This document shows positions 15,154-32,776 of a stretch of DNA of 36,636 bases, piece by piece. The stretch is from the NCBI GenBank assembly GCA_020718605.1, contig DYRR01000003.1, positions 1 to 36,636 on the forward strand. Direction: 5' to 3'. Origin of the DNA: Chthoniobacter flavus (GTDB taxonomy: Bacteria; Verrucomicrobiota; Verrucomicrobiia; Chthoniobacterales; CAKUMP01). Under the pieces are notes generated by a model. It made no database searches and was not told the origin of the DNA. It saw only the letters and a program-made list of their open reading frames with translations. Each line of letters begins with the position of its first letter. Position 1 is the stretch's first letter. A program made the position numbers and the translations under genes.

Positions 15154-15296
15154 CCCGAATCATTACGATTCTCTGGAGGATATAAAAAAATGGGGAAATT
15201 GTGCGGCGGGCGATCCCGCTCCTCCCGGAGCGGGCTACAGGCGGCTTCGTAGCCCTGCGCGGGAGCGCAGGGATCTGCCACTGCTAATGATCGGGG
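15154..15296 (+). mobile_element. 143-bp MITE-like element carrying a GTAG REP doublet (copy 1)
   Basis: Ends CCCGAATCATTACGATT / ACTGCTAATGATCGGGG. Gapless 130/143 identity by eye to 28639-28781. Flanks TTTCCCG/TCTCCCG may be a decayed target duplication. Confidence 0.75.
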
Positions 15297-15325
15297 TCTC
15301 CCGGGGATTCTTCGCCACAGCGGAC

Positions 15326-16300
15326 TCAATTTCCCCGCTGGAACACCTGCAAAAAAGCCGCCTCGATGGCCAGGGCTTCCTGGACATTCCGGCCCAGTTG
15401 ATCGCGCAATTCCTCCAGACGGTCGATCGCTTCCATCGCCGTTTTGTCCGTTATTGCCCGGGAAAGCACTTCGGTGGCCTCCGCGAAATCGGGATAATCC
15501 AGACGGGCCATCCCCTGGCGCTGCCGCAACACATCGGCCCACCAGCCGACCAGGGTTTCCATGAGTCTCTGGCGCACCCCGGCATATTCGGATGCGGCCA
15601 GTGCCTCGAAGTAATCCTCCCGCCCCGCCAGCCAGCGCCCGTCGGTCGTTTGTTTGTAGCGGGCCGACTCCGCTTTCATTTCCTCATCAACGGATTTTGA
15701 GATGCGGCCCTTGATGGCGGCAAGCTGTTCATGGAAATCCCGGGCCAGTGCGAACGCATCGGAGAATCCGCTCTTTGGCCGACGGGCGTTATCCCGAAGC
15801 AATTCCAGCACCGCCCGTTCGTCCCCGGTTACGGTGTGGTCGGCAGTCTCGCGAAGCGGGACCATGATGCAGCGGGAAAGGATCGTATCGAGCAGCATCT
15901 GGGGCTGGGCGCTGAGCAGCAGCAGCATGCTGTTGGCCGGCGGTTCCTCGAGCGTTTTCAAAAACGCATTCGCCGCCTGCGGTTGCATCCGGTCGGCCTC
16001 GCGGATAATCGCAACCTTTGTCCCCGGTCCCGAGGCCTTGAGTTGGAGGGCATGCTCGATCTCGCGGATCTGTTCGACAAGAATGCGCCGGGACTTGGAT
16101 TCCGGTGCGGCGATGCGCACATCGGCTCCGGCCAAAGGATCGCGGCCCGGAGGGGTTGAGTTCACCAGGCCGCAGAGATCCGAGGCCAGTGCCGTCTTGC
16201 CGCTGCCTGCGGGACCGGTGATCAAATACGCATGCGCAAGACGACCGGCCCGGTGCGCCCGCTTCAAATAATCTAATGCCGTGTCTCTGGAAAATGCCAT
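15326..16300 (-). CDS. holB: DNA polymerase III subunit delta'
   Basis: HAYLITGPAGSGK, AANAFLKTLEEP and TILSRC motifs; follows tmk. Confidence 0.92.
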   Translation of the reverse strand: MAFSRDTALDYLKRAHRAGRLAHAYLITGPAGSGKTALASDLCGLVNSTPPGRDPLAGADVRIAAPESKSRRILVEQIREIEHALQLKASGPGTKVAIIREADRMQPQAANAFLKTLEEPPANSMLLLLSAQPQMLLDTILSRCIMVPLRETADHTVTGDERAVLELLRDNARRPKSGFSDAFALARDFHEQLAAIKGRISKSVDEEMKAESARYKQTTDGRWLAGREDYFEALAASEYAGVRQRLMETLVGWWADVLRQRQGMARLDYPDFAEATEVLSRAITDKTAMEAIDRLEELRDQLGRNVQEALAIEAAFLQVFQRGN

Positions 16301-16312
16301 GCTATGGGGTGC

Positions 16313-32100: not shown

Positions 32101-32585
32101 GTGAGTGCGCGGGCCTTGTCGATCTGATCGCCCTGGATGGCATAGGGAATCTCGCCTTTCAGGCATCCGCTCAGCCCGATGATCCCCTCGCGGTGGCGGG
32201 CCAGGAGTTCCTTGTCGATGCGCGGCTTGTAATAGACCCCGTCGAGATGCGCGATCGAGACAAGCTTTACCAGATTGCGGTAGCCCGCCGCATTTTCGGC
32301 GAGCAGTGTGAGATGAAACGAGGCTTCTTTTTGGGAGGAGGCTTTTTTGTTGAGATGCGAATCCGGCGCGACATACACCTCGCAGCCGATGATGGGGCGG
32401 ATGCCGCCTGTTTTGCAGGCGTTGTGGAATTCCACCGCCCCATAGAGCACCCCGTGATCGGTGATCGCCATCGCCGGCATTTCGAATTCTGCGGCACGTT
32501 GGACCGCCGCCTTGATGCGCGTGGCTCCGTCGAGGGTCGAGTAGTCGGTGTGAAGATGAAGATGAACAAAGGAGGATTCGGACAT
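29106..32585 (-). CDS. dnaE: DNA polymerase III alpha subunit
   Basis: FVHLHLHTDYS, GPGRGSAAGS, PPDIDVDF and FAGYGFNKSH motifs; C-terminal OB fold. Confidence 0.98.
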   Translation of the reverse strand: MSESSFVHLHLHTDYSTLDGATRIKAAVQRAAEFEMPAMAITDHGVLYGAVEFHNACKTGGIRPIIGCEVYVAPDSHLNKKASSQKEASFHLTLLAENAAGYRNLVKLVSIAHLDGVYYKPRIDKELLARHREGIIGLSGCLKGEIPYAIQGDQIDKARALTAAYRDILGPENFFLEMHDHGIEAQGKVNAQLVQFSREFGLDLVACNDVHFLDVTDHEAHNALICIGTGSNIADENRLHYVTEVYLKSPAEMRALFRDHPEACDNTLRIAERCGFDLDTSTKYPNFQPPEGKSQTEHLRDLAEAGMRERYGAHWTDAEIHDRFRMELNVLETQGFTNYFLIVWDFIHWARQQGIPVGPGRGSAAGSIIAYAIGITDVDPIQYKLLFERFLNPERVSPPDIDVDFCQSRRGEVIDYVKRKYGERAVAQIITFGTLGAKSVVRDVGRVLGWGYSDADRIAKMIPSGPGNLNLTLAGFSKKDPATGEVKHEQGAVDKNSELADAIKNEPATADLWRIATKLEGLTRNVGVHAAGVVIGAGDLSDHIPLTRSNDGGIVSQYEGNALGELGMLKMDFLGLKTLTVIHDALTLIHRKEPDFNIKTIPLDDAAVFELLNRAEVVGLFQLDGGMATWCKSFDFHSIDDVIALNALYRPGPMDLLPDFIKRKKGQTPIKHAHPLLETVTAETYGLMIYQEQVMAATQVMAGYTLGGADNLRRAMGKKDREKMAKEREKFIKGCAEVNNIGAAKANEIFDLLEKFAGYGFNKSHSAAYGWISYQTAYLKAHYPVDFMAAVLSNEINNTDKLSTFIAECQRLGLFILPPDVNRSDLLFTPEMLPDGRKGIRFGLAAIKNVGEAAMAAAIAERVGGGDYQSIEDFCSRLGSRTVNRKILESLIRGGAFDFTQRDRAELFARVDSALSAAQAAQKDRASGQVSLFDAMELRQTAPSVPETISFEPWTQLEKLAFEKELLGFYVTGHPLDDYRDILDSGPYVTIVNLPQVEDRSSVKLAGILTSVDTRYSKKDNKPFAFVQLEDLTGTIEVRVWSEAFLKVKDRLTVGNVVAITGRIGSRDEGVPNMTANDVVPLTQGKTQRALRLFFPSNRGTPEELLEVRDHLLRHPGSRPVDLEFEMPAGRRARLRTGSAFRVNLTDDLKRALAPWLPV

Positions 32586-32647
32586 GCGGTCCCGGAGTGT
32601 ATTCCCGCCCTTCCCGATGTCGAGCCATTGGATGGTTGTGGGCGTCG

Positions 32648-32776
32648 CCCGAATCCTGACGATCTGAAACTTGACACGTCAGCTTCCGGGCTTGGTTCCC
32701 GCACAATCAGGGGCAAGCTGCCCCTGCCACTCTGCACCCATTCCCTCCACGGGCAGATGGATCGTCAGGATTGGGG
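32648..32776 (+). mobile_element. 129-bp MITE-like element with related TIRs but different REP cargo
   Basis: TIRs CCCGAATCCTGACGATC / GATCGTCAGGATTGGGG (16/17). Flanking 9-bp repeats TGGGCGTCG / TGGGTGTCG. Internal CAGGGGCA-AGC-TGCCCCTG-CCAC. Confidence 0.8.

Follow-up and report, generated by a model that had tools for sequence, protein, structure and literature searches.

Short inverted-repeat elements with IS1380-like ends and REP hairpin cores in a Chthoniobacter flavus genome

We analysed a stretch of 36,636 nucleotides from Chthoniobacter flavus (NCBI GenBank assembly GCA_020718605.1, contig DYRR01000003.1, positions 1 to 36,636 of the forward strand), referred to as the window, and in particular three short elements within it, E1, E2 and E3, which are bounded by terminal inverted repeats (TIRs) and contain hairpins of the repetitive extragenic palindrome (REP) type. 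The window is contig C244 of an assembly (G000) of 2.46 Mb in 284 contigs with 61% G+C that is 93% complete. All three elements are intergenic: E1 is flanked by a holB-like gene and a gene for a pyridoxal phosphate (PLP) enzyme, E2 has the dnaE stop on one side and the ilvH start on the other, and E3 separates the dnaE start from a divergent transporter gene. An Rfam scan of the window returned no match. The elements are MITEs (miniature transposable elements with inverted repeats), being short, non-coding and present in many copies, with ends that match an insertion sequence and with target duplications; polymorphism between strains was not seen. Their hairpins are REPs, i.e. GTAG-tagged palindromic units in high copy number. 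The features are as follows.

15154..15296, forward strand: MITE copy E1, 143-bp type, 91% identity to E2, one of the genome's 34 two-ended copies; left TIR 15154-15169, 44-nt left arm, REP doublet ~15214-15273, right TIR 15281-15296
15147..15153 and 15297-15303, no strand: weak flanking repeat of E1, TTTCCCG on the left and TCTCCCG on the right, 6/7 bases agree
28639..28781, forward strand: MITE copy E2, 143-bp type, identity of up to 94% to other copies (C105, C187); left TIR 28639-28654, REP doublet ~28699-28758, right TIR 28766-28781
28631..28638 and 28782-28789, no strand: target-site duplication of E2, CGTAATCA, 8/8 bases agree (9/9 counting the next C)
32648..32776, forward strand: MITE copy E3, 129-bp type, 95% identity to C129:6909-7038; TIRs 32648-32664 and 32760-32776, GTGG-tagged hairpin 32708-32726
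32639..32647 and 32777-32785, no strand: target-site duplication of E3, TGGGCGTCG on the left and TGGGTGTCG on the right, 8/9 bases agree; both copies match one and the same part of the E1-family profile
32783..32862, forward strand: 143-bp-type remnant (REP doublet and degenerate right arm), corresponding to E1 positions 61-141 with 81% identity; E3 is inserted at its left edge

An earlier note on this DNA had described three elements with shared, asymmetric ends, and all three are present exactly at the positions listed. The inverted ends common to them are 16-17 bp long. The left end is CCCGAATCATTACGAT in two of the elements and CCCGAATCCTGACGAT in the other, starting with CCCGAATC in every case, and the right ends, read inward, are CCCCGATCATTAGCAG, CCCCAATCGTTAGGAT and CCCCAATCCTGACGAT. 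On the opposite strand the termini are CCCC(A/G)ATC, and the asymmetry between a CCCG and a CCCC end is real. A degenerate 16-mer motif of the end matched the window five times with at most one mismatch, compared to only 0.02 matches expected from 100 shuffles; the sixth end, the right end of E1, is too diverged to be matched. The note's two clear flanking repeats are those of E2 and E3, and its account of the cargo was confirmed as well. E1 and E2 each contain two GTAG-tagged hairpins head to head, with the stems CCCGCTCC/GGAGCGGG and CCCTGCGC/GCGCAGGG, and E3 contains the unrelated GTGG-tagged hairpin CAGGGGCAAGCTGCCCCTG.

Further TIR pairs, which the earlier note had advised to look for, occur throughout the genome. 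For the 143-bp type blastn detected 34 two-ended copies with lengths of 124-159 bp and 71 partial matches of at least 40 nt. Many of the partial matches are at contig ends, which suggests that these repeats break the assembly. The pairwise identity among the 34 copies has a median of 0.895 and a range of 0.71-0.99. The 129-bp type is represented by four two-ended copies and fragments. Overall the end motif matched this genome 39 times with no control matches; among 400 sampled genomes of the phylum 18 had one or two matches and none had more. Two copies of the 129-bp family (C160:15982-16183 and C78:25563-25731) contain the GTGG hairpin module twice with differing spacers of ~35 nt. A reading of this arrangement as similar to CRISPR was ruled out because the same hairpin makes inverted pairs in C66.

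We compared the flanks of all 38 two-ended elements over 7-9 nt, allowing one base of slack at each boundary, and as a control combined every left flank with right flanks taken from the other elements. Direct repeats with at most one mismatch were observed at 23 of the 38 elements compared to 0.76 expected from the permuted flanks, and perfect 8-9-mers at nine elements compared to 0 expected. Nested insertions add to this. Two of the four copies of the 129-bp type, E3 and a relative on C196, sit at the left edge of a REP doublet, and the DNA to their right is a 143-bp-type remnant according to the profile of the 34 copies (in the window nhmmer aligned it to profile positions 43/46-136 with 60 bits). 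Excising E3 together with one copy of its repeat restores a continuous match to the 143-bp-family profile, and the same holds for the C196 relative. These cases are a paralogous comparison of a filled with an empty site and the best evidence here for true insertion with duplication. Truncated copies break near the borders of the REPs, mostly without duplications, which later recombination among the many REP units would explain. A retroelement-like 5'-truncation upon insertion was considered and rejected: nine of the ten left-truncated copies have no duplication, and loss after insertion or recombination between REPs fits better.

Allowing up to three substitutions, one GTAG type is present in the genome as 111 units, the other as 75 and the GTGG type as 10. 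About half of the GTAG units lie away from any arm homology. The first GTAG hairpin is also found in head-to-tail arrays with a period of 35 bp and without inverted ends (C204:1-120, C238:6519-6770 and C157:1-60). A census of the head-to-head GTAG doublets gave 89 in the genome, 16 of them too near to contig ends and 73 assessable. Both ends were present at 33 of these, only the right end at 10, only the left end at 8 and neither at 22; at least 51 of the 73 are thus joined to one or both ends.

These associations would also be seen if the REPs were neighbours and not cargo, with a transposon that prefers sites beside REP hairpins and with two ends that repeatedly bracketed doublets by chance. 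Insertion sequences that target REPs are documented in PMC3184786, E3 and its C196 relative are only 8 and 14 nt away from a REP, and in a second metagenome-assembled genome (MAG), G041, a 71-bp element with the same ends is inserted in a host REP, in its 3' arm, with a duplication of CGCTTGGCG. However, arms and doublet are common to all 34 copies, at the median identity given above, and the duplications lie outside both ends, so the doublet travelled inside the element. Moreover, an external REP occurs within 100 nt at only 3 of the 38 insertion sites here and at 1 of 11 in G041. General REP targeting by the transposon is not supported by these counts, and we consider it very unlikely that the REPs are neighbours.

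Another possibility is that the elements are extended REPINs, i.e. that the whole imperfect palindrome of 100-143 bp, including the outer 'TIRs', was moved by a REP-associated tyrosine transposase (RAYT) of the HUH type and that the likeness to the ends of an insertion sequence is secondary. The short form can indeed be written as one long imperfect palindrome (end, GATCC, REP, CTAC..GTAG, REP, GGATC, end), and both the 10 doublets with a right end only and the missing duplications of the left-truncated copies would be compatible with this. A search for RAYT genes, also advised by the earlier note, detected a RAYT-like gene on C112 with 68.6 bits on NF047646, below the cut-off of 80; its open reading frame (ORF) is cut by the contig end and the upstream flank is out of view. 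What speaks against RAYT as the mobilising enzyme are the duplications of 7-9 bp at 23 of the 38 elements, ends that agree in 16 of 16 bases with the ends of the DDE insertion sequence described below, and the existence of the 71-bp element, which has no REP and is bracketed by the same ends. We know of no target duplications made by IS200/IS605-type enzymes. Taken together we regard this alternative as very unlikely.

Two other matches to Y1/HUH enzymes were encountered in the genome. At C42:267-740 there is a gene for an IS200-like TnpA (157 aa; NF033573, 68 bits) with another repeat on both sides, translated as ..SLGQRPR.. / ..WGVAPGW... On C14 at ~16025-19258 (locus L002) the carB frame, which encodes the large subunit of carbamoyl-phosphate synthase, contains an in-frame RAYT-like HUH/Y1 domain of ~200 aa (PF01797, 33 bits). 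It is bracketed by repeated peptides of SNSGFQPEPSGK..PAC type, the DNA of which is hairpin-forming, there are no stop codons, and the locus looks like a whole REP-RAYT-REP unit within an essential gene.

In order to find an autonomous partner we scanned metagenome contigs with the exact 16-mer of the end and obtained at least 118 stretches. On five contigs the exact end CCCGAATCATTACGAT occurs twice, the copies facing each other at a distance of 1577-1607 bp; in a sixth pair one base is mismatched. Each of these six insertion sequences of 1.58-1.61 kb has a single ORF of 440-448 aa and 16-bp ends that start with CCCGAATC, so the long transposase-coding copy that the earlier note had proposed to search for does exist in metagenomes. 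The left end of the MITEs agrees with the ends of the 1.6-kb element at 16 of 16 positions. Furthermore an 886-bp element with these ends is flanked by a perfect 7-bp duplication (7/7). The transposase ORF reached 90.4 bits on PF13701 (cut-off 34.7). Its closest annotated relatives, found with tblastn in plasmid records, are IS1380-like IS1678 transposases with 21% identity over 96% of the length, and its identity to annotated IS1380 members is 21-26%. Among 8000 candidates scored, 838 protein clusters are related at E ≤ 1e-10 and at least 120 clusters are 78-100% identical. Most of the related clusters are on contigs of 1.6-2 kb, which is the look of a multi-copy insertion sequence in metagenome assemblies.

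According to ISfinder, members of the IS1380 family are ~1.55-2 kb long with a single ORF and ~15 bp inverted ends starting with CC. The partner has the same length (1577-1607 bp), single ORF and 16-bp ends with CC, and it is similar to IS1380, IS1247, ISPme1 and ISEcp1 in having one ~440 aa DDE transposase ORF with PF13701, a length of ~1.6 kb and ends of ~16 bp. The claim of the earlier note that the elements are of the DDE type, with inverted ends and target duplications, is thus borne out both by the identity of their ends to those of an IS1380-like insertion sequence and by the duplication statistics.

The note had also stated that there is no cognate transposase in the window. This is true of the window, where no relative of the protein was found, but not beyond it: apart from the metagenome contigs, contig C33 of the same genome holds the sole genomic matches to the IS1380-like protein. 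The remnant at C33:1978-2465 is a 5'-truncated transposase in broken pieces with 59-69% identity, frame breaks and stop codons. The last bases of the C33 copy (~1960-2737), up to position 2737, are exactly the right end of E3; this identifies the family of the cognate enzyme, of which the genome retains a dead copy. Between the stop of its transposase and its right end this decayed insertion sequence contains a REP-like hairpin.

Other candidates for the parent were tried and rejected. IS256 came into question because it duplicates 8-9 bp of its target, but the end of the C44 element, which is of this family, is the same only for the first 5-6 bases, and G041 has no IS256 match. Transposases of the families PF01609 and PF01610 gave weak matches in the genome with no end motif nearby. 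When end-like motifs in the genome were loosely paired at distances of 60-3500 bp, only noise and no long pair resulted. The C44 element (1-1871) encodes a 431-aa transposase (PF00872, 278 bits), lies inside a fragment of another IS256-like transposase gene, and has ends that also begin with CCCGA.

The same ends were observed around other interiors. The exact 18-mer of the left end occurs at seven places in G041, a MAG labelled 'uncultured Verrucomicrobiales bacterium', and at one contig end of a MAG titled Chthoniobacter flavus. With up to two mismatches G041 contains the end motif 40 times (reversed control: 0), including at least 11 end pairs 71 bp apart. This 71-bp element has perfect ends, is without a tagged hairpin and is flanked by 9-bp duplications at two sites. 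An element of 125-131 bp on four metagenome contigs likewise has these ends, with their CCCG/CCCC asymmetry, around a different GTAG doublet with the stem AAGCGGCG, a hairpin that is a host repeat in G041; one copy of 125 bp has a perfect 8-bp duplication (8/8). On two further contigs we found a 131-bp element with a third doublet, whose stems are GGCAACCG and GGCAAGCG or GGCTCCGA. The cargo REP types recur elsewhere on the same contigs. Between the short elements and the full-length insertion sequence the common sequence amounts to only 16-24 nt.

From these observations we conclude that E1-E3 are MITEs with IS1380-like ends and a host-type REP core that are moved in trans by an IS1380-like DDE transposase, a reading to which we assign a probability of roughly 0.8. 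The three elements would be non-coding mini-transposons with the 16-17 bp ends of a ~1.6 kb IS1380-like insertion sequence, the ~440 aa transposase of which would copy or move them and leave a target duplication of 7-9 bp. Their interior does not come from the insertion sequence and consists of REP hairpin DNA of the type found in the host genome itself. The 143-bp family has spread one head-to-head GTAG doublet to at least 33 intact sites, and the 129-bp family carries the GTGG hairpin. The idea of the earlier note, a DDE vehicle with interchangeable REP cargo, is largely supported in so far as the same ends enclose different cargo here and in other organisms. An ongoing exchange of cargo is not what we see, as this genome contains two fixed families with a single founder each, and each family looks like one capture followed by amplification.

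Several observations weigh against this conclusion. The transposase ORF scored 172.1 bits on the NCBIfam model for IS1380 (NF033539), just below the cut-off of 180, and the IS1380 family is described with duplications of 4-5 bp whereas those of the MITEs, the 886-bp derivative and the 125-bp element are 7-9 bp long; for these two reasons we call the partner IS1380-like and not a member of the family. The value for IS1247, 5 bp, is from Table 2 of PMC3281130. Of the full-length insertion sequences with both flanks only two of five have a flanking repeat, each with 6/7 bases, and 15 of the 38 two-ended MITEs have no recognisable duplication. Compared with the full-length insertion sequence, the 143-bp type has a right end that agrees at just 13 of 16 positions. 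The 93%-complete assembly contains no intact transposase gene of this type. REPs also exist apart from the vehicle, since 22 of the 73 assessable doublets have neither end (some of these have variant right ends that the pattern missed) and single REPs form the 35-bp tandem arrays. Finally, empty sites in reads or relatives, proposed as a check by the earlier note, did not appear: for four public runs over 14500-33500 the Logan contigs stop inside each element and no listed joint skips one, and a search of 40 relatives, of which 5 belong to the same family and 35 to the same order, yielded no 143-bp element.

The family of IS1380-like MITEs with a host-REP core is real and fairly old. Current mobility, which the earlier note had implied, is not supported, in view of the missing empty alleles, the median identity of 0.895 and a transposase gene that is present in the assembly only in decayed form. 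Both families of this genome are probably old and by now largely unable to move. The MAG titled Chthoniobacter flavus has one 143-bp-type copy, at a contig end, with a flank that has no match in the window's genome.

Two routes fit the entry of the REPs into the element. In either case each family would have been founded by a single acquisition of REP DNA by a minimal end-to-end element, which the DDE enzyme may then have amplified. The first route would be a RAYT-type insertion of a REP doublet into a MITE. The REP-bearing 125-131 bp and the REP-less 71-bp families share the end-adjacent arm CCGGGCAAAG, and this shared arm together with the REP-like hairpin in the decayed insertion sequence on C33 favours an insertion of the doublet into an existing mini-element. 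The second route would be a capture of adjacent DNA as in elements of the IS1380 family. According to PMC3281130, one copy of such an insertion sequence is enough to mobilise the host DNA beside it, as transposable modules (TMos), and movement of this type would explain the foreign cargo. The 13/16 match of the 143-bp-type right end is what a surrogate end might show and may therefore fit this route. Known IS1380 modules differ in that they carry genes, whereas the cargo here is tens of bases of REP DNA.

A further possibility is that the hairpin has a function. The core might be needed for, or strongly favour, the transposition or persistence of very short IS1380-like elements, so that REP doublets would be recruited again and again from whichever host. 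Tagged hairpins occur in four of the five short families with these ends and come from three different host REP sequence sets, the REP type of the cargo is found elsewhere on the same contigs, and folding z-scores are between -2.2 and -4.0. The common arm CCGGGCAAAG and the hairpin of the C33 copy point in the same direction. On the other hand, the 71-bp family spread to at least 11 copies without any REP, the independent acquisitions are few and were counted without a tree, and the density of REPs in intergenic DNA alone makes some capture likely. We thus consider a functional role for the hairpin possible though rather doubtful.

Two more repeats were encountered in the window. Positions 5157-5205 hold a further remnant, consisting of the second GTAG hairpin and a tail similar to the right arm, with 78% identity to positions 93-141 of the 143-bp element. 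At 10497-10665 there are 8-10 copies of a 15-bp tandem repeat (CTTTCTTGGC-type units) in apparently coding DNA, probably belonging to a lysine/alanine-rich repeat protein on the minus strand.

Like the bacterial MITEs Correia/NEMIS, RUP and Nezha, the elements described here are short, non-coding and intergenic, occur in multiple copies, have ends that match an insertion sequence, duplicate their target and form a strong predicted hairpin. They differ in their interior, which did not arise by deletion from the parent (the two have only 16-24 nt in common) and is a REP doublet of a host family. With REPs and REPINs associated with RAYT they share the GTAG-tagged, GC-rich hairpins, the inverted doublets with a short spacer, the tandem arrays elsewhere and the presence of a RAYT-like gene; most doublets here are, however, bounded by DDE-type inverted ends and 7-9 bp duplications, neither of which is a feature of REPINs. 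To our knowledge REPs and REPINs move without inverted DDE-type ends or target duplication.

GTAG REPs have been reported for the Planctomycetes-Verrucomicrobia-Chlamydiae (PVC) group in PMC3733652. As far as the accessible parts of PMC3733652, PMC3184786, PMC3281130 and bioRxiv 10.1101/2021.07.10.451892 go, MITEs form one class and REPs or REPINs another, and REPs appear as targets of insertion sequences, not as cargo. The last of these, to the same extent, assigns different enzymes, duplication rates and fates to REPINs and MITEs. A literature search listed no title or abstract describing a MITE of the DDE type whose core is a REP doublet.

Most copies of one REP doublet in this genome were probably multiplied by a second enzyme, as most of them have DDE-type ends and target duplications. 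Copying by a second enzyme bears on the growth of REP populations, on the interpretation of REP counts in population-genetic models of REPINs and on the origin of MITE interiors. If, moreover, REP doublets are recruited repeatedly because a hairpin core helps very short elements to transpose or persist, the elements would be a chimeric replicator: DNA that belongs to RAYT, an HUH enzyme, would owe its multiplication to a DDE enzyme, and REPs would escape both the dependence on RAYT and their own slow duplication rate. The analysis also defines an abundant, unnamed group of IS1380-like elements with an unusual duplication of 7-9 bp together with its non-autonomous derivatives, which helps to annotate genomes of the Verrucomicrobiota and to explain breaks in their assemblies.

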